NCBI GenBank assembly: GCA_963666565.1
Contig: OY762911.1
Coordinates: 160,001 to 224,000, forward strand
Reading direction: 5' to 3'
Origin: Thermoanaerobaculia bacterium
Lineage (GTDB): Bacteria > Acidobacteriota > Thermoanaerobaculia > Multivoradales > Multivoraceae
Length of the DNA: 64,000 nucleotides
The notes under the pieces were generated by a model, which saw only the letters and a list, made by a program, of their open reading frames with translations, searched no databases and was not told the origin of the DNA. Made by a program: the position numbers and the translations under genes. Of the stretch, positions 7,541-52,731 are shown piece by piece (the first letter of the stretch is position 1; every line of letters starts with the position of its first letter).

Positions 7541-10306
<2,766 letters not shown>

Positions 10307-26085: not shown

Positions 26086-26109
26086 CGCGGTGCGTCGTCC
26101 AGCCCAGCC

Positions 26110-26269
26110 GGGTCAGGAGGGGTCGGCGTCCAGGTGCCTCTGAACGAGCGACGGCCGACGACGTTGCAGTCACCGACACCCAACCGGAGCGAGTGAAGCG
26201 GAGCAAGCGCAACCCTGCCCTTCTCCTCTCGAGCGCGCGCGTCACCTGGGCGCCGACCCCTCCTGACCC
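26110..26269 (+). repeat. Structured intergenic element, diverged copy (27-bp closing stem, 106-nt core)
   Basis: 26110-26136 pairs with 26243-26269 (one G-T); core shares motifs with copies at 48.2 and 52.1 kb. Confidence 0.75.
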
Positions 26270-26309
26270 AAGACGGGCGAGTCCGTCCTCCGCCGCGCCG
26301 GGTGGCGGC

Positions 26310-26376
26310 GGCCTGACGGCCGCCCGTCTTCTCGCCGCCTTCGGCGGCAAGCGGGTCGGAAGACCCGCGCACCCGG
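26310..26376. repeat. REP-like double-hairpin element
   Basis: GCCGCC-TTC-GGCGGC then GCGGGTC-GGAA-GACCCGC-GCACCC; near-identical copies at 38730 and 48434/48520. Confidence 0.85.
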
Positions 26377-26389
26377 CGCGTCCACGCGG

Positions 26390-35396: not shown

Positions 35397-35473
35397 TGGT
35401 CGGGGCGAGAGGATTTGAACCTCCGGCCTCACGGTCCCGAACCGTGCGCTCTACCAGGCTGAGCTACGCCCCG
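35397..35473 (-). tRNA. tRNA-Pro (anticodon CGG)
   Basis: CGGGGCGTAGCTCAGCCTGGTAGAGCG-CACGG-TTCGGGA-CCGTG-...GGTTCAAATCC...CGCCCCGACCA. Confidence 0.97.
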
Positions 35474-36633: not shown

Positions 36634-38700
36634 ATGAGGATCCCCCAAGGCACCCAGGAGAGTCTGGCGCGAGGCGACATCGACGCAGTAGAGGCGGACT
36701 GGCTGGCCGCGATCGACGGCGAGATCGAGGTCGGCCAGTTCCTCGCCGTCACCAAGGGTCTCATCCGCCTGGGCGAGGAGGACCGGGTGGGAACCCTCCT
36801 CGAGCTGCTGGACGATCAACTGCGGGAACGCGGCATGTGGGCCCAGCGCCTGGACCTCGTCCGCGGCGCGGCGCACCACTTCGTCCGCAGCGGACAGGTC
36901 TACGACACGGTTCTCGACACGCTCCGCGAGCTCTACAGCGACCGCGAATCCGACCTGAACGGCCTGCTCCAGGACCTCAACCTCGATCAGGGACGGCAGC
37001 ACGCCAACAAGCTCTGGGACAAGGTGGACCGGCTGCGCAACCTGCTGGCGTTCCGGCCCGGCGACATCGTCGAGATGGAGGGTCGCGGCGTGGGCCGCAT
37101 CGCCGACGTCAACATGCCGCTCCACGTCTTCAAGGTGGATCTTGAGACGGCGAAGGGGGTTTCGGTCGGGTTCCGCGCCGCGGGCAAGATGCTCCGGCTG
37201 CTCCCGGAAGGGCACGTCCTCCGCCAGAAGCTGGAACAACCGGAGCAACTGGAGGGACTCAAGCCCACCGAGCTGCTGGAACGCACGCTCACCAGCTACG
37301 ACCGCCCCCTGACCGGCGCCGAAGTCAAGGCGATCGTCGTCGGCATCATCCCGGCTCGCCGCTGGTCGAGCTGGTGGACCAGCGCCCGCAAGCAGCCGCA
37401 GGTGCTGTCCTCCGGCGGCCCCCGGCAGACCTACCGCTGGGTCGCGGCGACGGACGCGGAGGAGTCGCTGTGGCGCGAGTTCGAGGACGCGCCGGACCGC
37501 CAGAAGGTCGGCCTCCTCCGGCGGGCCGCGAACCAGTCGCAGGAACTGCGGGAGCGGATGGCGGCGGCGCTCGACCGCCTGAGCCGCGCCCTGACGGACG
37601 AGCGGCCCGCGCTTGCCTTCGAGCTCCGCTACGCGCTGGAACGCTACGGCAACGAGCCCTCCTGGCCAGCCGAGGACCTCCTGGCCAATCTGGCGGATCC
37701 GCTCGACTTCTTCGTCGCGGTCGAACAGCGTCCGGCCCGCGAACAGGCCTACGCCCTGCTTCCCGCCTGCCGGGACGACTGGCTCGACGTGCTGGAGCGG
37801 CGCTTCCTGCTGGAAACCGATACGAAGGCGATCGACGCGATCGCCCGCGCGCTGGACGAGGAGACGCTGAGGCGCTGCGCCGCCCGCTCGCAGGTCCAGC
37901 CCCACCGGACGCCGGCGGCTTTCACCTGGCTGGTGGAACGGGCCGCCGACGAGCCGTCGTTCCGCGAGGGCCGCCAGAGCCGCCTCCTGAACCTGCTGAT
38001 CCAGGCGCTCCGGCACGACGCCTTCGCGCCCTTCCGGCCCCGGATCAAGGCCCTGTTCGACTCCGGCGGCACGGCGCCCAGGCTGCTTCCCGAACTGTCG
38101 CTGGACGAGGCCCGTCAGGCGGAAGTCGCGATCCGCCACGCGGCGCTCGAGGACTACCGGCGCGAACCGCTGCTGGCGTCGCTGCACCTGAAGTTCCCCG
38201 ACCTGCAGGCCGACGGGGACGCCGACAGCGACGAGCTCTACGCGCTGCCGGCCTCGATCGAAGCGCAGCGGGAGAAGCTGCGGGAGCTGGTCGAGGAGGA
38301 GATTCCGGCCAACCGCAAGGCGATCGAGGAGGCGAGGGCGCTCGGCGACCTGCGCGAGAACTTCGAGTACAAGTCCGCGCGGCAGCGGCACGAGTACCTC
38401 ACCGCCCGGGCGACGGAGTTGCAGCAGGATCTGCAGCGCTCGACTCCGATCGACCTCGCGGCCGCGGCCTGCGACCGGCTGCGCATCGGCAACCGGGCGA
38501 CCTTCGAGTCGGAGAACGGCGAGCGGCGCACGGTGGCCATCCTCGGCCCCTGGGAGAGCGCGCCGGAGCGGGGAATCGTCTCGTACGAGTCGGACCTCGC
38601 CGGCCGGCTGCTCGGGTCGGCGCCGGGAGCGCGCGTGGAGCTGGACGGCGAGACGTTCACCCTGCGCGCGATCGAGGCGATTCCAGCCGACGGCTGGTAG
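36634..38700 (+). CDS. Large GreA/GreB-family protein with ~520-aa N-terminal extension
   Basis: C-terminal IEEARALGDLRENFEYKSA, ILGPWE, VSYES.LA..LLG. Confidence 0.85.
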   Translation: MRIPQGTQESLARGDIDAVEADWLAAIDGEIEVGQFLAVTKGLIRLGEEDRVGTLLELLDDQLRERGMWAQRLDLVRGAAHHFVRSGQVYDTVLDTLRELYSDRESDLNGLLQDLNLDQGRQHANKLWDKVDRLRNLLAFRPGDIVEMEGRGVGRIADVNMPLHVFKVDLETAKGVSVGFRAAGKMLRLLPEGHVLRQKLEQPEQLEGLKPTELLERTLTSYDRPLTGAEVKAIVVGIIPARRWSSWWTSARKQPQVLSSGGPRQTYRWVAATDAEESLWREFEDAPDRQKVGLLRRAANQSQELRERMAAALDRLSRALTDERPALAFELRYALERYGNEPSWPAEDLLANLADPLDFFVAVEQRPAREQAYALLPACRDDWLDVLERRFLLETDTKAIDAIARALDEETLRRCAARSQVQPHRTPAAFTWLVERAADEPSFREGRQSRLLNLLIQALRHDAFAPFRPRIKALFDSGGTAPRLLPELSLDEARQAEVAIRHAALEDYRREPLLASLHLKFPDLQADGDADSDELYALPASIEAQREKLRELVEEEIPANRKAIEEARALGDLRENFEYKSARQRHEYLTARATELQQDLQRSTPIDLAAAACDRLRIGNRATFESENGERRTVAILGPWESAPERGIVSYESDLAGRLLGSAPGARVELDGETFTLRAIEAIPADGW

Positions 38701-38729: not shown

Positions 38730-38797
38730 GGCCTGACGGTCGGTGCGCTTCCTGGCCGCCTCCGGCGGCAGCGGGTCAGAAGACCCGCGCACCCAGC
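38730..38797. repeat. REP-like double-hairpin element
   Basis: GGCCTGACGG...GCCGCCTCCGGCGGC-A-GCGGGTCAGAAGACCCGC-GCACCCAGC. Confidence 0.85.
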
Positions 38798-38842
38798 GGG
38801 AGGCAGGCTGCAAGTCGCTGAAAGTGCTACACTTATAGCGAA

Positions 38843-44516: not shown

Positions 44517-45898
44517 GCGCGGAAGGACGGCCCGCCCTGGACCGCAGCCGGCCGCCGGTTCCCGGTCCCGGCCGGAGCTGCTCGTTCCCGGGCTTCGAGG
44601 TCGAGGAGCTTGCGTCCGGCGCGCGCCTGTGGACGCTCGACGTTCCCGGCTGCGGCCTGGTCACCGCCGTGCTGCTCATGCCCGGCGGCAGCGAACTCGA
44701 CGCGCCCGGGCGCGCCGGTCTCGCCTCGTTCACGGCGGGGCTCCGCGGCGCCGGCACGAAGCGCCGCGGCGCCCTCGAGTTCGCGGCCGCGGCGGAGAAC
44801 CTGGGAACCGCCGTCAGGACCTCGTGCGGCTGGGAGAACGCCGCGGTCGCCGCCACGATCGGCGCCGGCGACGTCCCGGCCGGCCTGGACCTGGTCGCCG
44901 AAGCCGCCGCCGAGCCGGCCTTCCTGGACGAGGAAGTCGAGCGCCGCCGTCGACGCCGCCTGGCCGAGATCGAGCGGCGGCGCAGCGATCCCGCCGCGCT
45001 GGCCGGGACCGCCTTCGCCCGGGCCATCTACGGCGGCACGCCCTACGGGCACCCGGCGATCGGCGACCGCGGAACGACCGAGGCGATCGCCCGGGACGAC
45101 ATCGCCCGTTTCCACGCGCGGGCCCTCGCCGCGGGCTCGTGCCATCTGATCGCGGTCGGCGACCTCGGAGCGGGCGCGGTGCGGCGGGCGATCGAGGACA
45201 CGGTCGAACCCCGGCTCCGGGACCACGCCCGGAGCTTCGACGGCGCGCCGGAGAGCCTCGAGCCCGACTTTCCGGCGCCGGCGGCGTGCCGGGTCGTCGT
45301 CGTCGACCGGCCCGGCGCCGCGCAGACCGAACTGCGTGTCGGCCACTCCGGCGTTCCGCGCAGCCACCCCGACCGCGTCCGCCTCCAGGTCGCCAACTCG
45401 ATCCTCGGAGGCAAGTTCATGAGCCGGTTGAACCTGACTCTCAGGGAGAAGCACGGCTACACCTACGGCGTCTCCAGCGCCTTCGCCTTCCGCCGCGGCC
45501 CCGGCCCCTTCGCGGTGTCGACGGCGGTGGCCAACGACGTCGCGGGCGCCGCCGCCCGGAAGATCGTGGAGGAAGTCGAGCGGATGTGCGCCGAACCGCC
45601 GGCCGCGGCTGAACTCGACGACGCCCGCAACTACATGGTCGGCGTCTTCCCGTACACGCTGCAGACGATCCAGGGCCTCTCCTCCCGCCTGCAGACGCTG
45701 GCCGCGTTCGGCCTCGACCGCGACGAGTACCACCGTTGGCCCGAGCGGGTCCGCGCCACCTCGCGCGAAGACGTGCTCGAGGTCTGCCGGCGCCACCTGT
45801 TCCCGGACCGGCTGACGGTCGTCGCCGTGGGACCGGCGGAGGATCTCCTGCCGCAACTCGAAGGGCTCGGAACGGCCGAGGTGCAGGCGGCCGCCTGA
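44513..45898 (+). CDS. M16B peptidase, non-catalytic partner subunit
   Basis: GTG overlapping upstream TGA; no HxxEH; LGG.FMSRL...LREKHGYTYG R/Y motif. Confidence 0.88.
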   Translation: MSAEGRPALDRSRPPVPGPGRSCSFPGFEVEELASGARLWTLDVPGCGLVTAVLLMPGGSELDAPGRAGLASFTAGLRGAGTKRRGALEFAAAAENLGTAVRTSCGWENAAVAATIGAGDVPAGLDLVAEAAAEPAFLDEEVERRRRRRLAEIERRRSDPAALAGTAFARAIYGGTPYGHPAIGDRGTTEAIARDDIARFHARALAAGSCHLIAVGDLGAGAVRRAIEDTVEPRLRDHARSFDGAPESLEPDFPAPAACRVVVVDRPGAAQTELRVGHSGVPRSHPDRVRLQVANSILGGKFMSRLNLTLREKHGYTYGVSSAFAFRRGPGPFAVSTAVANDVAGAAARKIVEEVERMCAEPPAAAELDDARNYMVGVFPYTLQTIQGLSSRLQTLAAFGLDRDEYHRWPERVRATSREDVLEVCRRHLFPDRLTVVAVGPAEDLLPQLEGLGTAEVQAAA

Positions 45899-46044
45899 GC
45901 GCGGGAGAACGCCGCTCGCGTGGTATCTTCTCCGGCTGTTTCCAACCCCGGGATCCGTGCCGCGGCACGCGGCCGGCGTCCCGCACAGCCCGAATCGCGC
46001 GGGCCCGGGAGACGGGCCCGCGACCCCTTGCGACCGGAGCGTCG

Positions 46045-48141
46045 ATGCAACTCGAGAACTCGGAACAGATACGCAACCTCGCCGTCGTCGGACACAACGA
46101 CACGGGCAAGACGACCCTGCTCGCCGGCCTGCTCTACACCGGCGGCGTCTTCAACCGGCAGAACCGCGTGGAGGACGGGAACACGGTCACCGACTTCGAC
46201 GACGAGGAGGTCCGGCGCGGCATCTCGATCGGCCTCGCCGTCTGCTACGCGCCCTGGTCGGACGGGGCCGCCAACTGCAAGGTCAACCTGATCGACTGTC
46301 CGGGTTCCGGGATCTTCGTCCACGAGAGCAGCTCCGGCATGCGCGCGGCCGACGCCGCCCTGCTCTGCGTGAACGCGGCCTCGCCGACCCAGGTCATGGC
46401 CGAGAAGGCCTGGGAGATCGCCGGCGAGATGAACCAGCCGGTGATGTTCCACCTGACGAAGATGGACCGCGACAACATCGACTTCGCCGGCTGCATCGCC
46501 GAACTCCAGGAGAACTTCGACCGCATGGCGCTGCCCGTGCAGATACCGATCGGCGACGGCAAGGACTTCACCGGCGTCGTCGACCTGCTGAGCCGCAAGG
46601 CCTACGCGTACGACCGGGACGGCGCCGGCCGCAGCCAGGCGTCCGAGCCGCCGGCGGAACTCGCGGACGAGATCGACGAATGGCGCAACAACCTGACCGA
46701 AGCGGTCGCCGAGAGCGACGACGAGTTGATGGAGGCCTACTTCGAGAACGGCGACTTGACCCGGGAGCAGTTGATCCAGGGGCTGAAGGCAGCGATCCGG
46801 TCCCGCTCCCTGTTTCCGGTCACGATGTCGTCCGGCGCCCACGGCATCGGCAACTCCGCCCTGCTCGACGCGGTGGTCCGGCTGCTGCCCTCGCCGGTCG
46901 ACGCGCCGCCGATTCCCGCCGGCGACCTCGGCGGAGAGCCCGTGGAGCTCGACCGCGGCGAGGAAGCGCCGGTCAGCGCGATCGTCTTCAAGACGATGAA
47001 CGATCCCTTCACCGGCCGCATCTCGCTCCTGCGCGTCGCCGGCGGCAACATGAGTTCGGACACCGTCTACTGGAACGCCGGCCGCGAGGAGGCCGAGCGC
47101 GTCGGCCACCTGATGCACATGCAGGGCAAGACGGGCGAGGACGTCCCCAGGCTGGTCGAGGGCGACATCGGCGGCGTCGCCAAGCTGAAATCGAGCGCCA
47201 CCGGCGATTCGCTCACGAGCCGGGAGCGGCCGGTGAAGCTCGACTTCCCCACTGCCCCGGTCGCGGCGATCTCGTTCGCGATCGAGCCGAAGACGAAGGG
47301 CGACGAGGAGAAGATCGGCGAGGCGGTGTCGCGCCTGCTCGAGGAGGATCCCAGCCTGCACGCCGGCCGCGACCCGCAGACCGGCGAGTTCCTGCTCTCC
47401 GGCGCCGGCCAGCTTCACGTCGAGATCGCCGTGTCCAAGCTGAAGAGCCGGTCGAAGGTCGAGGTCATCCTGCACCCGCCGAAGGTGCCCTACCGGGAGG
47501 CGATCCGGAGGACCGCGGTCGGCCACGGCCGGCACAAGAAGCAGAGCGGCGGCCGCGGCCAGTTCGCGGACTGCACGATTACGATGGAACCCGTCGCCAC
47601 CCCCGAGGAGTACGAGTTCGTCGACGAGATCTTCGGCGGCTCCATCCCCCAGAACTACCGCCCGGCGGTCGAGAAGGGCCTGCTCGAAGCCGCCGGCCGC
47701 GGCTATCTGGCGGGCTACCCGGTCGGCAACTTCCGCGTCCGGCTGCAGGACGGCAAGTTCCACGATGTCGACTCGTCGGAGATGGCCTTCAAGGTCGCCG
47801 GCTCGCTCGCCTTCAAGGACGCGATGGCCAAGGCCGCGCCGACGCTCCTGGAACCCGTCATGCAGGTCGACATCAACACGACGGAAGACTTCATGGGCGA
47901 CATCATGAGCGACCTCTCCTCACGCCGGGGCCGCCCCCAGGGCATGGAGGCCAAGGGCAACGCCCAGATCGTCAAGGCCACCGTCCCCATGGCCGAAATG
48001 CTGACCTACGCCCCGGCCCTTCGCTCCATGACCCAGGGCCGCTCCAGTTTCACGATGGCCTTCTCCCACTACGAGGAGGTCCCGCGCCAGATCCAGGAGA
48101 AGATCATCGCCGAGGCGAAGCGGGAGGAAGAGGACGGATAG
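46045..48141 (+). CDS. fusA2: Elongation factor G paralogue (EF-G2 type)
   Basis: GHNDTGKTT, RGISI, DCPGSG, TKMD, KKQSGGRGQF, HDVDSSEMAF, LRSMTQGR. Confidence 0.9.
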   Translation: MQLENSEQIRNLAVVGHNDTGKTTLLAGLLYTGGVFNRQNRVEDGNTVTDFDDEEVRRGISIGLAVCYAPWSDGAANCKVNLIDCPGSGIFVHESSSGMRAADAALLCVNAASPTQVMAEKAWEIAGEMNQPVMFHLTKMDRDNIDFAGCIAELQENFDRMALPVQIPIGDGKDFTGVVDLLSRKAYAYDRDGAGRSQASEPPAELADEIDEWRNNLTEAVAESDDELMEAYFENGDLTREQLIQGLKAAIRSRSLFPVTMSSGAHGIGNSALLDAVVRLLPSPVDAPPIPAGDLGGEPVELDRGEEAPVSAIVFKTMNDPFTGRISLLRVAGGNMSSDTVYWNAGREEAERVGHLMHMQGKTGEDVPRLVEGDIGGVAKLKSSATGDSLTSRERPVKLDFPTAPVAAISFAIEPKTKGDEEKIGEAVSRLLEEDPSLHAGRDPQTGEFLLSGAGQLHVEIAVSKLKSRSKVEVILHPPKVPYREAIRRTAVGHGRHKKQSGGRGQFADCTITMEPVATPEEYEFVDEIFGGSIPQNYRPAVEKGLLEAAGRGYLAGYPVGNFRVRLQDGKFHDVDSSEMAFKVAGSLAFKDAMAKAAPTLLEPVMQVDINTTEDFMGDIMSDLSSRRGRPQGMEAKGNAQIVKATVPMAEMLTYAPALRSMTQGRSSFTMAFSHYEEVPRQIQEKIIAEAKREEEDG

Positions 48142-48152
48142 CGCGCCGGCAG

Positions 48153-48222
48153 CGTGACGGCGCAGGCGCAGCGGCGCAGGCGCAGCGGCGGAGGCGTAGC
48201 GGCGGAGGCGTGACGGCGGAGG
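48153..48222 (+). repeat. Five tandem 14-bp units (CGYRRCGGCGSAGG)
   Basis: cgtgacggcgcagg/cgcagcggcgcagg/cgcagcggcggagg/cgtagcggcggagg/cgtgacggcggagg. Confidence 0.85.
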
Positions 48223-48230
48223 ACGTTCCC

Positions 48231-48424
48231 GCCGGCTTTCGGTTCCGAGGAGAGGGGTCCCAGGGGACGCTCGCACTCTCTTGGTAGAGGGGAACGGGAG
48301 TGCTCGCTTCGGTCGGCTGCGTTTCACGTCGGCGTCGGTTTCGGGTACGACGCCGGGAGTCACTTGCCTCCAGCCCCCTGGGACCCTCTCCTCGGGACCT
48401 GCGCCGGCTGGACGTCGTCGTCGG
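48231..48424 (-). repeat. Structured intergenic element, left flank of the R-M cassette
   Basis: 48241-48266 pairs with 48375-48399; reverse complement aligns with 52109-52296. Confidence 0.9.
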
Positions 48425-48433
48425 GGTGCGTGG

Positions 48434-48580
48434 GCTGGGTGCGCGGGTCTTCCGACCCGCTGACGCCGAAGGCGGCCAGAAGAAGAAGCGCGCCGGGCCG
48501 CCAGGCCGGCACCGCTCTGGCTGGGTGCGCGGGTCTTCTGACCCGCTGACGCCGAAGGCGGCCAGAGAAGAACGCGCCGA
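48434..48580. repeat. Two tandem REP-like elements (period 86 bp)
   Basis: GCTGGGTGCGCGGGTCTTCYGACCCGCTGACGCCGAAGGCGGCCAGA at 48434 and 48520. Confidence 0.92.
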
Positions 48581-48616
48581 CAAGTTCCATGCACATGCCG
48601 TTGCTACGATCCATGC

Positions 48617-50245
48617 ATGGTCGTGGAGCCCAGCCACGCGGCGGCCGCCGGCGGCTTCATCCCCCCTCCAGCGCCGGGGGAGCGACCGACCGAGTACGCC
48701 GACCGAATCGGCGAGTACCACGTCGCCGGCAGGACGGAAGCGCACCGAAAGCAGCACGGGCTCTACCTGACGCCTGTCGCGGCGGCCGACTTCATGGCGG
48801 GTCAGATCCGGGCCGCAGGCGACCGCCTTCGGGTTCTGGATCCTGCTGCGGGCGCGGGCATCCTGTGCTGTGCGGCGGTCGAGGCGCTCGCGGGACGCGA
48901 CCGGCCACCGGGCCGGATCGAGCTGGTCGCCTACGAAGTGGACGCCGAGTTGATGGCGCCGCTGGAGGCGGTCCTCGGCTACCTCAAGGAATGGTGTCGC
49001 GACGAGCAAGGGATCAGGCTCGAAGCGCGAATCGAGTCAACGGACTTCGTGCTGGCGCACGCCGAGGCACTTCGGCGTGAAGACAGCCTGCTGCCCGGCA
49101 ACTCGGACGACCCGGAGTTCGACGTCGCCATCTCCAACCCGCCGTACTTCAAGATCAACAAGAGCGACCCGAGGGCGGTTCTCGCTTCAAGCGTAGTCCA
49201 CGGTCAGCCGAACATCTATGCCCTGTTCATGGCGGTCAGCGCGGCCCTGGTCCGTCCCGGCGGCGACTTCATTTCCATCACGCCCCGAAGCTTCACGTCC
49301 GGCCTCTACTTCCGGCGGTTCCGCAGGGTCTTCTTCAGCCTTGTTCGGCCCACCCTGGTGCATGCGTTCGGATCGCGCCGGGAGGCGTTTCAACGGGACG
49401 ATGTCCTTCAGGAAAACGTCATTCTCCACGGCGTTCGGCTGAACTCCCAGCCCCAAGATCGTCAGGCTCCCCTGGTGATCTCCAGCAGCCGTGGCGTTGG
49501 CGATCTGGATGACTCCAACCGGCGCACGACTCCGCTTCAAGCGGCCCTCGATCTCGACGACCGTGACCGCGTACTCCGACTTCCCGTCTCCGAGGAGGAC
49601 GCTCGCGTTCTTGACCTGGTCGACTCATGGCCGAACACCTTGGCCAGCCTTGGCCTCGCCATCTCTACCGGGCCCGTGGTCCCCTTCCGTGCGAGGGACC
49701 TGGTCGAGCGCGAAGGCCAGGTGCCCGAGTCGCACGTTCCCCTCCTCTGGATGAACCATGTGCAGCCAATGCAGGTCACCTGGCCATTGCATCGGCACAA
49801 GCCGGAGTACATCAAGCGTGAGGGCGCCGAGAAACTCCTCCTGTCGAACCGCAACTACGTTCTCCTGCGCCGCTTCACTGCGAAGGAGGAAGTTCGGAGG
49901 CTCTCGGCGGCGCCCTACGTGGCCCAGTCGATGCCCATTCCCCAAGTGGGCCTGGAGAACCACTTGAACTATGTCCACCGGCCGGCCGGCTCTCTCACCG
50001 ACGAAGAGGCATGGGGTCTGGCGGCGCTCTACAACAGCCGCCTGCTCGACACCTACTTCAGGTGCCTGAACGGGCACACCCAGGTGAACGCGACGGAGCT
50101 ACGCGCCATGCCGCTGCCCGCAAGGGACCTCATCGTCGAACTCGGCGAGCAAGTCCAGCAACTCGCCAACCCGATCGACCATCTCGACCCGCTGATAGCG
50201 GACATGCTGTCAGCCGACCTCCCTCGGAAGCGCACCGTTGGTTAG
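48617..50245 (+). CDS. N6-adenine DNA methyltransferase (BsuBI/PstI, Eco57I-like gamma class)
   Basis: GLYLTP, LDPAAGAG motif I, SNPPY motif IV, QENVI, STGPVV.FR, ENHLN, NGHTQVNATELR. Confidence 0.92.
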   Translation: MVVEPSHAAAAGGFIPPPAPGERPTEYADRIGEYHVAGRTEAHRKQHGLYLTPVAAADFMAGQIRAAGDRLRVLDPAAGAGILCCAAVEALAGRDRPPGRIELVAYEVDAELMAPLEAVLGYLKEWCRDEQGIRLEARIESTDFVLAHAEALRREDSLLPGNSDDPEFDVAISNPPYFKINKSDPRAVLASSVVHGQPNIYALFMAVSAALVRPGGDFISITPRSFTSGLYFRRFRRVFFSLVRPTLVHAFGSRREAFQRDDVLQENVILHGVRLNSQPQDRQAPLVISSSRGVGDLDDSNRRTTPLQAALDLDDRDRVLRLPVSEEDARVLDLVDSWPNTLASLGLAISTGPVVPFRARDLVEREGQVPESHVPLLWMNHVQPMQVTWPLHRHKPEYIKREGAEKLLLSNRNYVLLRRFTAKEEVRRLSAAPYVAQSMPIPQVGLENHLNYVHRPAGSLTDEEAWGLAALYNSRLLDTYFRCLNGHTQVNATELRAMPLPARDLIVELGEQVQQLANPIDHLDPLIADMLSADLPRKRTVG

Positions 50246-51203
50246 TATTGAGGAAGCGCGCAGAATCCTCCGAGCCTTGGGGATGCCGTCACCGCAGTCG
50301 AATCGGATGGCCGGCCTGACTCTGCTTGCGCTGTGCGGGCTGGCGCCGGGCGGCTCCTGGTCGAACGCGTCCCGCAGCCGAAGGACGGTGACCAAGGGCA
50401 TCATGGACCACGCCCGCGACCACTTTGGCCAAGGCTACGCCCCAAACACCCGGGAGACGTTCCGCCGCCAGGTACTTCACCAGTTCGTGCTCGGGGGCAT
50501 CGCCGAGCACAACCCCTTCGAACCTGACCTGCCAACCAACAGTCCCCGCTCGCACTACGCCATCAGCGAGGCCGCGCTCCGGGTCGTCCAGTCCTTCGGC
50601 ACCCCGGAGTGGGAACGAAACGCGGTCGAGTTCCGCCGCGACCTCCCAGCTTGGCTCGCAGAGTACGAAGACTCGCGATCCCGGAATCTGGTCCCCATCC
50701 GCTTCCCCGACGGCCAGGAGGTGCGACTCTCGCCAGGCTCGCACAACGAGCTTCAGAAGGCAGTGATCGAGGACTTCGCTCCGCGCTTCGCCCCTGGCGC
50801 CCATGTGCTCTACCTCGGCGACACCGCCAGAAAGGACCTCCACGTCGACCAGCAGCGCCTGCTTGACGTCGGCCTCCCGCTCACGGAGCACGACAAACTG
50901 CCCGACATCGTCCTCCACGACCGTGCCCGCGACAGGCTGTTCCTAATCGAGGCCGTAACGTCACACGGTCCAGTCGACCGAAAGCGCCTCGCAGAGTTCG
51001 AGGGCCTCCTGCACTCCTGTCGCGCCAAGCCCGTCTACGTGAGCGCCTTCCCGGACTTCAACGAGTTCCGCAAGCACCTGACCTCCATTGCCTGGGAGAC
51101 CGACGTCTGGCTCGCCGAGGTGCCCGGCCACCTGATCCACTTCGACGGCGACAAGTTCCTGGATCCGGTGGTCCAGGATCAAGGAGCAAGCACAGGACGA
51201 TGA
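50238..51203 (+). CDS. BsuBI/PstI-family type II restriction endonuclease
   Basis: YAPNTRETFRRQ.LHQF, TNSP, LSPG.HN.LQ..IE.FAPRF, KLPD, IEAVTSHGP, IAWET.VW; TTG start overlapping MTase end. Confidence 0.92.
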   Translation: MVSIEEARRILRALGMPSPQSNRMAGLTLLALCGLAPGGSWSNASRSRRTVTKGIMDHARDHFGQGYAPNTRETFRRQVLHQFVLGGIAEHNPFEPDLPTNSPRSHYAISEAALRVVQSFGTPEWERNAVEFRRDLPAWLAEYEDSRSRNLVPIRFPDGQEVRLSPGSHNELQKAVIEDFAPRFAPGAHVLYLGDTARKDLHVDQQRLLDVGLPLTEHDKLPDIVLHDRARDRLFLIEAVTSHGPVDRKRLAEFEGLLHSCRAKPVYVSAFPDFNEFRKHLTSIAWETDVWLAEVPGHLIHFDGDKFLDPVVQDQGASTGR

Positions 51204-52051
51204 CGAACCTCGTAGCGCCGCCACCGTTCACGTTTCTCGTGCCTGAGTCCCGCCAGGAGCCGATCATCGTCGAACAGAGTCACTCCGCGCTGAGGATGGC
51301 GATCGTCGAGCGCTCCCAGGTGGCGGCCACCGTACGCGACTGGGCAACCTTGTCCGGAGTCTACGTGTTGATCTGCAACGCTGGCGAGGATGGTAAATGG
51401 CACGCCTACGTCGGCGAGGCGTCAGGAGGGCTGGGAAACCGACTGCGCACTCACAACTCCCAACGTCCTGACTGGAATCGGGCCCTGCTCGTCCACCGCG
51501 ACGCGACACGCGGCTTCACCTCTACCGAAGCCGCATGGCTGGAGGGTGAACTCCACGACCACCTCGGAAACGCCGCGAACGTCCGGCTCCAGAACAAGAA
51601 ACAGCCTAGGGACAGGACGCTTCCAAGGCACGATCAGGCTCCGCTTAGCACCGTCGTTGGAGTCGTGGTCGCGGTGCTGCGAGCAATCGGGTGCGATCTC
51701 GGGCCCCTCAGCGGGAAGGATCGGGCCATGGCCGAAGAACGGCTGGCACCGCAAGCGCGACGCCCCAAATCACCCAAGATCCAGCTTCGGGATCTCCTGG
51801 AACAGAACTTCACACCGCTTGGCACGGTCCTCGTGTCGGTGAGTCCATCGTGGCCGGCGACTGCGACGGTCCTTCCCGACGGCAGAATCGACTTTGGGGG
51901 AAGGGCCTACAAGACCCCTTCGGCCGCCGGCAAGGCGGCCCGGAAAGGGAAGGCGACGAACGGCTGGGACTTCTGGGCAGTTGAAACGCCGCAAGGCCTC
52001 GTACGACTCTCCGAGCTGCGCTCCCGGTGCGCCGAAGGTGCCGCCGTCTGA
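51200..52051 (+). CDS. GIY-YIG nuclease fused to C-terminal RAMA/DUF4357-like domain
   Basis: GVYVL...AYVGE...NRL.TH...DW, WLE, N; C-terminal TPSAAG...TNGWDFW. Confidence 0.78.
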   Translation: MTNLVAPPPFTFLVPESRQEPIIVEQSHSALRMAIVERSQVAATVRDWATLSGVYVLICNAGEDGKWHAYVGEASGGLGNRLRTHNSQRPDWNRALLVHRDATRGFTSTEAAWLEGELHDHLGNAANVRLQNKKQPRDRTLPRHDQAPLSTVVGVVVAVLRAIGCDLGPLSGKDRAMAEERLAPQARRPKSPKIQLRDLLEQNFTPLGTVLVSVSPSWPATATVLPDGRIDFGGRAYKTPSAAGKAARKGKATNGWDFWAVETPQGLVRLSELRSRCAEGAAV

Positions 52052-52108
52052 TCCGCTCACGGACGCAACGGCAAACCAAGTCAGTGGGCACTGCCGCTGT
52101 CAGGGTAG

Positions 52109-52303
52109 CCGACGACGCCCAGCCAGCAGCGGGCCGGAGGAGGGGGTCCCTGCGGGCTGGAGGCAAGTGACTCCCGACGCCGTGCCCGAAGCCTCCGCCG
52201 ACGTGAAACGCAGCCGACCGAAGCGAGCACTTCCCTTTCATCTACTCAGAAAGTGCGAGCGTCCGCAGGGACCCCCTCCTTCGGCCCGCTGCTGGCGGGT
52301 GTC
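52109..52303 (+). repeat. Structured intergenic element, right flank of the R-M cassette
   Basis: 34-bp stem 52122-52155/52263-52296 (one G-T), 107-nt core; inverted relative to the 48.2 kb copy. Confidence 0.9.
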
Positions 52304-52322
52304 ACCAACGCCGCCATCCGGC

Positions 52323-52368
52323 CGCCGAAAGCGTCCAGAAACACGCGCCGGCCGAAGGCCGGCACCGC
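52323..52368. repeat. Partial REP-like copy
   Basis: CGCCGAAAGCGTCCAGAA...GCGCCGG...GGCCGGCACCGC resembles 48464-48515. Confidence 0.6.
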
Positions 52369-52731
52369 TTACTCGTCGGCGTCGACGAACTCGATGACGG
52401 CGAGCTCGGCGGCGTCGCCCTTGCGGGGGCCGAGCTTGGTGATGCGAAGGTAGCCGCCGGGGCGGTCCGCGTAGCGGGGGGCGATCTCGTCGAAGAGCTT
52501 CTTCACGTGAGCGCGGTTGGGGAGCCAGCGGCGGACGAGGCGACGGGCGTGGACGGTGTCCTCGCGGCCGCGGGTGATCATCCTCTCGGCGACCGGCCGC
52601 AGGGCCTTGGCCTTGGCCAGCGTGGTCCGGATGCGGCCGTGCTCGACCAGCGACGCAAGCTGGTTGCGGAACATCGCCCGGCGGTGGGCCGTCGTCCGGC
52701 CGAGTTTCTTGTAGCCGATTCCGTGACGCAT
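52369..52731 (-). CDS. rplQ: 50S ribosomal protein L17
   Basis: MRH...KLGRTTAHRRAM, RPGGYLRI, RKGDAA. Confidence 0.97.
   Translation of the reverse strand: MRHGIGYKKLGRTTAHRRAMFRNQLASLVEHGRIRTTLAKAKALRPVAERMITRGREDTVHARRLVRRWLPNRAHVKKLFDEIAPRYADRPGGYLRITKLGPRKGDAAELAVIEFVDADE

Follow-up and report, generated by a model that had tools for sequence, protein, structure and literature searches.

The stretch of DNA analysed here (the window; G000:C1:160001-224000, 64,000 nucleotides) belongs to a genome, G000, that consists of a single 4.79-Mb contig with 70% G+C; four DNA contig runs agree with the sequence of the stretch and no joints were seen. Between the gene for EF-G (45736-48141) and rplQ (52369-52731) lie, in this order, a palindromic sequence of ~190 nt on the minus strand (48229-48419), two copies of a separate repeat that we call REP B, three plus-strand genes (48617-52051) and a second, inverted copy of the palindrome (52111-52300), on the plus strand in the orientation of our model. 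By their Pfam matches the three genes, hereafter the cargo, encode an Eco57I-type methylase, a BsuBI/PstI restriction endonuclease and a RAMA-domain protein. The palindrome, element A, is a real and previously undescribed family of structured repeats. The window carries three of the genome's copies, the third of which belongs to a different subfamily and occupies 26093-26282 (plus strand) between convergent genes for a patatin-like protein and a DeoC-family aldolase. The copy at 48229-48419, recovered by inverted-repeat and nhmmer matches, is the closest paralogue of 52111-52300 in the genome (82%, mutual best match), with 88 nt between its 3' end and the stop codon of EF-G. Downstream of EF-G, 48150-48228 is a tandem array of GC-rich units, an instance of the CCG-rich simple-repeat tail (GCCGCC or GTCGCC-like units) that often follows the 3' end of element A and varies in length among orthologous copies (24, 33 and 45 nt; loci L133, L136 and L130). 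Unrelated to element A are eight tandem-spaced 52-nt repeats at 9025-10192 that encode DxDGDGxxD-type motifs and read as FG-GAP/VCBS-like in a large protein, with a ninth weak match at 38193.

The copy at 52111-52300 matches positions 1-190 of the nhmmer profile of the family (E 2.3e-42) and scores 147.1 bits with our covariance model, CM R1. Its inverted arms of 37 nt (52119-52155 and 52263-52299) show 95% complementarity and are separated by 107 nt, just where the original prediction had placed an inverted repeat. The plus strand of this copy folds to -127.3 kcal/mol compared to -83.0 +/- 4.4 kcal/mol in 200 shuffled sequences (z = -10.1), none of which folds as well, and the reverse strand likewise folds beyond its shuffles (z = -8.9). 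The closing stem, P1, is delimited by the inverted repeat and by alignment helices. Its 5' strand (52119-52157, plus strand; helices 1-2, with an extension that is 93% paired) has a conserved CCAGCC end containing an unpaired or mismatched A, a hypervariable middle and a conserved inner part, GGAGGGGGTCCCTGCGG; its 3' strand (52261-52299, plus strand) ends in GGCGGGT. Within P1 lie two arms on the same strand. P2 (52163-52214; helices 3 and 4, coordinates mapped by hand) pairs GCAAGTGAC with GAAACGCAGC across internal loops that include a tandem purine mismatch, and holds a variable region of ~33 nt. P3 (52223-52260; helix 5) pairs GC-GA-GCACTT with AAGTGC-GA-GC, has a tandem G.A inside the helix and is capped by a pyrimidine-rich loop.

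An iterated nhmmer search over G000 built the element A profile and returned 98 matches, comprising 83 near-full copies, 13 partial ones and two reverse-strand self-hits of the most palindromic copies. The 83 copies were used to build CM R1 (152 positions, 29 pairs). They are highly diverged from one another, with a median pairwise identity of 0.66 (5-95% range 0.57-0.81), and subfamilies are recognizable. The structured nature of the sequence had been anticipated correctly, but "ncRNA or ssDNA motif" does not describe it well, since 98 matches in one genome make it a high-copy dispersed repeat.

The fold of this family is maintained by compensatory change, both among paralogues and at orthologous loci. 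RNAalifold applied to a MAFFT alignment of the 83 copies finds 34 pairs, 29 of which show compensatory change. In the model-fitted alignment of the same copies, which follows the structure and therefore flatters pairing, 98.3% of 2373 cells pair compared to 77.3% after shuffling, a level that none of 500 shuffles reaches; 24 of the 29 model pairs change on both sides, again beyond all 500 shuffles. The covariation score is 0.543, as against 0.151 when shuffled and 0.045-0.085 when the partners are slid by one to three columns. The MAFFT result and the tests on orthologues described below are independent of fitting. What this analysis supports is an architecture of P1, P2 and P3: a closing stem of ~45 bp and two inner arms. 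Family-wide, P1 has conserved ends (CCAGCC with its unpaired A, opposite GGCGGG), a hypervariable yet complementary middle and a conserved inner part. The consensus of P2 (helices 3 and 4) is GC-AA-GY-GA-C paired with G-GA-RC-GCA-GC, and that of P3 is GC-GA-GCGC paired with GCGC-GA-GC with the tandem G.A within the helix. Individual pairs illustrate the exchange of one Watson-Crick state for another: in P2, pair 35-88 is GC in 47 copies, AU in 27 and CG in 6, and pair 40-82 is CG in 68 and UA in 13; in P3, pair 103-135 (helix 5) is GC in 63, CG in 16 and AU in 3.

These data allow the fold originally drawn by eye to be judged part by part. The quoted outer stems do differ in sequence between copies while retaining complementarity, as had been noted, and cores of 107 and 108 nt can be read off for two copies, in keeping with the near-constant core length that was claimed. 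Only one of the four proposed inner helices survives, the GCACT/AGTGC arm with its GA flanks, which is P3 (helix 5) and the sole inner arm drawn correctly. The GGCTG/CAGCC helix, which competes with the supported pair 35-88, is paired in 77% of cells and does not covary (its level is reached in 436-500 of 500 shuffles), and the CGT-GAA-ACG and GGAG/CTCC hairpins, paired in 58% and 60% of cells, show none either; all three are confined to the subfamily of the copy at 52111-52300. The second supported arm, P2, is a different helix. The broader proposal, that selection acts on structure and that the copies are not the product of mere duplication, is borne out by the covariation in 83 copies together with the comparison of orthologues. 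Neither of the outcomes named beforehand as refuting it, a match to a known family or a core lacking significant covariation, was obtained.

The copy downstream of rplQ is found in the same place in eight other species. Its identity to G000 in these species is 0.89-0.94 at paired positions and 0.58-0.83 at unpaired ones, compared to 0.55-0.73 at four-fold degenerate sites of the adjacent rplQ and rpoA. Extending the comparison to 14 orthologous pairs from many loci gave 425 base-pair comparisons, of which 356 are unchanged; pairing is kept by 41 double and 12 single changes, and broken by 15 single changes and one double. Three of the 14 orthologous pairs have low stem identity (0.69-0.76) and may represent replacement by another subfamily, not evolution in place. 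Stems that change less quickly than four-fold sites show that the copies are more than decaying junk, and pairing that is kept after insertion requires either selection in place, at the level of the host, or conversion from paralogues. A dead or decaying selfish insert would not show such stem conservation.

Element A is a high-copy, lineage-restricted family. Of the 41 other genomes of the genus, 39 have matches to CM R1 (40 of 42 with G000), with dozens of matches per genome as a lower bound, since the best 53 candidates were scored in each. No matches were found in 15 genomes from 12 other genera of the same family, and in a draw across the class they occurred in 20 of 21 genomes of the genus and in one of 129 others, so that among the genomes searched its distribution is patchy. 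The one exception, G039, comes from another family of the order; at E <= 0.1 it gives 17 matches, 15 of which span the whole model at 28-46 bits. Two G039 alignments retain the core motifs with a closing stem that is wholly different in sequence, and in P3 they have GGGC/GCCC instead of GCGC/GCGC, which are compensatory changes. Judged from these alignments, the matches are a diverged sister family with the same length and architecture, and the existence of this diverged version means that the fold of element A is older than the genus.

We found no known family to which element A belongs, in line with the original prediction. In Rfam 15 at gathering scores the sole match in the window is a tRNA (35400-35473), and at E <= 10 the region 52000-52400 matches just miRNA-precursor hairpin models, at 36 bits compared to a gathering score of 268. 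Collections of plasmids and phages searched with blastn contain no match to element A, and the family is absent from the titles and abstract openings brought up by full-text searching. Both the absence of matches to known families and the branched fold with its invariant unpaired purines would suit a free-standing structured non-coding RNA, or a family of self-cleaving ribozymes, transcribed from a promoter of its own. This idea is hard to square with ~85 copies per genome that differ by truncation, flipping and presence or absence, with pairing that is almost purely Watson-Crick, and with the failure to find either a promoter-like site in 47900-52600 or conserved sequence upstream of element A. 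We consider it very improbable.

The composition of the pairs bears on the molecule in which the fold is read. Across the 29 model pairs, G.U occupies 32 of 2407 cells (1.3%) and A.C 14 of 2407; among states that a copy does not share with its nearest paralogue there are 17 G.U, 12 A.C and 30 other mismatches. By comparison, G.U accounts for 86 of 1225 pairs (7.0%) in the stems of 56 tRNA records of G000. The avoidance of G.U is thus comparable to that of A.C, as expected of pairing read in DNA or in both strands and unlike a typical RNA, and the near absence of G.U points to DNA more than to RNA. Covariation almost free of G.U argues for a branched fold selected in DNA. The invariant tandem G.A motifs sit on the plus strand of the model. 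Two other guides to the strand were tried and set aside. The reverse strand folds more stably in 76 of 83 copies, but reverse shuffles are also ~9 kcal/mol more stable, so the difference reflects composition and the criterion was rejected. An apparent preference of G.U wobbles for the plus strand (63 versus 35 in the outer stem; 32 versus 14 in the model pairs, inflated by inherited states) was dropped because the private states give 17 versus 12.

Gene context was assigned with a crude GC3-based gene caller, and tallies within 150 nt were made by hand. A stop codon faces the 3' end of element A in 57 of 83 copies; within 150 nt of this end 47 copies are stop-facing versus 9 start-facing, and the same tally at the 5' end is 20 versus 12. 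In tandem gene contexts the element is antisense in 32 cases versus sense in 14. From this context, a co-transcript, if any, would come from the strand opposite to the plus strand of the model. With the same caller, several copies fall inside long open reading frames (G000 2208015-2210810, 2405654-2409916 and 2916560-2919766), which may be high-G+C artefacts or reflect in-frame intragenic copies.

The stop-codon polarity would also be expected of a co-transcribed RNA element, and a tentative alternative, which we think possible but rather unlikely, is that element A is a cis-acting RNA element of 3' untranslated regions. ERIC and bcr1 would be the precedents, being described in passages of PMC3184786 as co-transcribed, with compensatory changes at the RNA level. 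The RNA would be the reverse complement of our model, transcribed together with the gene that ends at the element's 3' side, and its hairpin would define the 3' ends of mRNAs, stop exonucleases or provide a site for an RNase. The constraint on stems at orthologous loci fits this proposal, which is also compatible with mobility as DNA: the family could have spread as DNA and been retained for its effect in RNA. However, selection at the level of RNA should tolerate G.U on the transcribed strand, where it is as rare as A.C, and the tandem G.A motifs are conserved on the strand that transcription from the upstream gene would leave uncopied into RNA of the same sense. At our locus, moreover, a terminator-like hairpin with a T-rich tail (52345-52365, minus strand) stands between the rplQ stop codon (52369) and the 3' end of element A and separates the gene from the copy; it has nine pairs, read from 52365 to 52345, followed by GTGTTTCTGG. 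No T-run follows either arm of the copy at 52111-52300 itself. As a separate observation, a further motif is repeated at 52321-52370, just after rplQ, and at 48489-48515. It is a terminator-like hairpin, GCCGGCC-TTCG-GGCCGGC with a T-rich tail behind it, and its summed word depth in contigs ranges from several hundred to ~1670 compared to ~40 in the flanks; depth of this order shows that the motif is common in the sampled community or genome.

Species differ in element A by presence, truncation and core inversion. We compared 48 loci from relatives, holding 47 full-length elements, with G000. Both 400-nt flanks of 25 of these elements map within 2.5 kb of each other in G000, where the element is present in 14 cases and missing in 11 (nine sites). 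At G000 1440817 there is a clean empty site between two overlapping genes (GTGA), and three other species have ~235 nt here, made up of element A, a CCG-rich tail of 24-45 nt and ~20 nt next to the element's 5' end; CGTGAG and CGTGCG, an imperfect 5-6-nt repeat, border the insert. At 2204139 (L165), ~255 nt are replaced by 4 nt and there is no direct repeat. Other losses leave part of the element behind: the terminal 6-7 nt remain as a stub at 3724430, ~20 nt remain at 2562986, where a small neighboring gene of G001 is also absent, and a 3' remnant (model positions 118-190) lies near 4299000. At the G001 locus that corresponds to 2562986 (L162, ~1700-1980), a small open reading frame beside element A reads as a candidate AbrB/SpoVT-like antitoxin, and is missing from G000. 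Inversions occur as well. At G000 3398555, comparison with G001 shows an inverted core between outer arms and flanks that align directly, and in G003 a whole segment between two inverted copies is inverted relative to G000 (L163). Polymorphism of these kinds, in presence, truncation and orientation, places element A among structured small mobile or repetitive DNAs such as REPINs, MITEs, ERIC and bcr1, and apart from ribozymes or RNA genes of a single function.

Several expected signs of a mover were sought in G000. The longest direct repeat flanking the 83 copies averages 6.27, equal to the null of 6.27 from shuffled pairs of flanks (108 of 200 nulls are as high), providing no sign of a target-site duplication. 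No parent element was found: there are no left or right half-copies that flank a transposase or bracket a gene, all 98 matches are at most ~195 nt long, and those that are partial stand alone or in tandem as fragments. At the rplQ locus no empty site was found either, the region downstream of rplQ being non-syntenic in the five genomes of the genus poor in element A. With the origin at ~0.886 Mb and the terminus at ~3.208 Mb by cumulative GC skew, the model strand is leading in 36 of 83 copies, and thus shows no bias between leading and lagging strands.

A candidate mover in G000 is its one RAYT-type gene (749057-749932; Pfam Y1_Tnp, 36 bits), in which the HUH and tyrosine motifs can be read. 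The end of its reading frame runs into copies of REP B, not of element A. REP B has a GGGTGC tag, a hairpin GCGGGTC-N4-GACCCGC and then a second hairpin GCCGCC-GAAG-GGCGGC, is separate from element A, and has 809 hairpins in G000. The two copies at 48433-48577 (48433-48491 and 48519-48577, minus strand) adjoin the 5' end of the element A copy at 48229-48419, and repeat analysis places more at 26310-26378 and 38730-38798. REP B tags within 150 nt of element A number 29 on the 5' side (28 of which share one orientation) versus 6 on the 3' side. By eye, the 3' end of element A and its flank (GGCGGGTGCGTCCGACGCCGCC) resemble a gapped REP B. A RAYT homologue is present in 25 of 42 genomes of the genus, as against 40 of 42 for element A, and at least ten genomes rich in element A have no homologue, including several complete genomes with many high-scoring matches. 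The five genomes of the genus with few or no matches have neither RAYT nor REP B (0-6 hairpins). Because these genomes are kin and the group was chosen after the counts were seen, the association with RAYT is a lead and not a result. With co-occurrence only partial, the RAYT is at most a candidate for the mover of element A.

Close copies form inverted pairs that are able to bracket genes. Among matches less than 5 kb apart, ten pairs are in the (-,+) arrangement with 5' ends inward, none is (+,-) and three are (+,+). Nine inverted pairs consist of full-length members, and three of these, including the pair in the window, are mutual best matches among 82 possible partners; the remaining six join unrelated subfamilies. 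The restriction-modification cassette in the window is absent from two relatives, one of which has two copies of element A 339 nt apart (G003) and the other a single copy (G006). The RAMA gene is diverged or replaced in four genomes (G015, G019, G020 and G023). Other pairs bracket ruvB, identified by reading its translation, and candidates identified by their N-termini: a gatB region, tatA, an alcohol-dehydrogenase-like gene and toxin-antitoxin-like genes.

Pairs of this kind could be recombination sites for cassettes, with an inverted pair and its cargo moved as a unit by a structure-specific recombinase or transposase. The excess of (-,+) over (+,-) pairs, the restriction-modification cassette that is missing in G003 and G006, and the inversion between two inverted copies in G003 would all follow, and there is a precedent in the MITE-flanked integron mobilization unit (IMU) described in passages of PMC3184786. 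We nonetheless judge this explanation improbable. The pairs enclose housekeeping genes too (ruvB, gatB and tatA, by reading), two-thirds of the full-length pairs are made of unrelated subfamilies, no recombinase is associated with them and none of the pair-plus-cargo units was seen a second time. Furthermore, deletion breakpoints fall at differing places in the stem, which suggests illegitimate or homologous recombination and not a fixed crossover site.

The reading we favor, with about even confidence, is that element A is a non-autonomous dispersed repeat that acts at the level of DNA, is mobilized in trans and also drives rearrangements. Near-pure Watson-Crick pairing, turnover of copies and inverted pairs able to flank cargo lead us to it. 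We envision a scenario in which the ~45-bp stem and three-way junction act in DNA, as a single-stranded hairpin or an extruded cruciform, and the fold serves as substrate for a putative trans-acting enzyme that copies, removes or flips the element. Element A would be actively mobilized now or have been so formerly, and the polarity that sets its 3' end against the stop codon of the upstream gene could reflect either target choice or the positions that are tolerated. Once established, copies would also serve as substrates for recombination, giving rise to inversions and to the gain or loss of cassettes. Some of our findings count against mobile DNA: no target-site duplication, parent element or element-tied enzyme was found in the searches described above, the absence of a leading or lagging bias is unlike what IS200/IS605-type single-strand transposition predicts, and the slow evolution of stems at orthologous loci argues against a purely selfish element.

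By analogy, element A works most like a REPIN or a structured MITE. It falls in neither class because it lacks the build of a REP doublet, a target-site duplication and a parent element. As described in passages of Bertels and Rainey (2011, PMC3116915), REPINs are REP doublets that form hairpins and are mobilized by RAYT tyrosine transposases, with compensatory changes in a single-stranded DNA hairpin that has conserved ends and with asymmetric excision footprints. As far as that description extends, the likenesses are many: both are intergenic, occur in many copies and persist vertically within a lineage; both form a long hairpin whose ends are conserved and whose variable middle stays complementary through compensation, and both make no target-site duplication; losses leave part of the element; and G000 also has one RAYT-type gene and ~800 REPs. 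However, element A has about twice the length, its arms do not correspond to a pair of REP hairpins, and its center is a 107-nt conserved and asymmetric core with two supported helices. Unlike in a REPIN system, the REP unit of G000 (REP B) differs in sequence from element A, no RAYT is flanked by element A and many genomes rich in it have no RAYT homologue.

The bcr1 repeat of the Bacillus cereus group and ERIC, at 127-155 nt, adopt a cruciform-like fold with compensatory changes according to passages of PMC3184786. On that account they share with element A a fold kept by compensation, a position at the 3' ends of genes and a distribution that is not conserved between relatives. In the same source bcr1 has 5-bp direct repeats and known transcription, whereas direct repeats were not detected for element A, and in the Rfam, plasmid and phage collections we found no sequence relation between element A and either repeat. 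MITEs and IMUs, in the passages of PMC3184786 that treat them, are likewise small, non-coding and multi-copy, with inverted termini and the capacity to fold, and pairs of them can bracket cargo. The differences are that element A, unlike a MITE derived from a DDE insertion sequence, has neither a target-site duplication nor a related insertion sequence, and that its "terminal repeats" vary between copies and yet stay complementary. A further point of comparison is the integron. The attC sites of integrons form direct arrays after cassette genes, next to an integrase, and have the core sites RYYYAAC and GTTRRRY. Element A is instead dispersed over the whole chromosome, its close pairs are inverted and not direct, and its termini read GTCCAGCC and GGCGGGT.

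A bolder extension, to which we attach little probability, is that the three-way junction is recognized in single-stranded DNA or a cruciform by a putative structure-specific enzyme and that the inverted pairs constitute a new type of cassette vehicle. If this were true, element A would be functionally analogous to attC sites or IMUs but have a new fold as its basis, and its inverted pairs would move or exchange cassettes such as the PstI-type restriction-modification unit in the window.

Few parts of bacterial genomes are as poorly understood as small structured repeats. Element A is unusually informative: a genome has ~85 diverged copies, the family occurs in more than 40 related genomes and it has a distant sister, a combination that makes its fold, turnover and constraint measurable without experiments. 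For annotation, its covariance model would mask more than 1000 intergenic "hairpins" that otherwise resemble candidate RNAs. Finally, the flips, the stubs and the inverted pairs around accessory genes link element A to rearrangement in an uncultured lineage.
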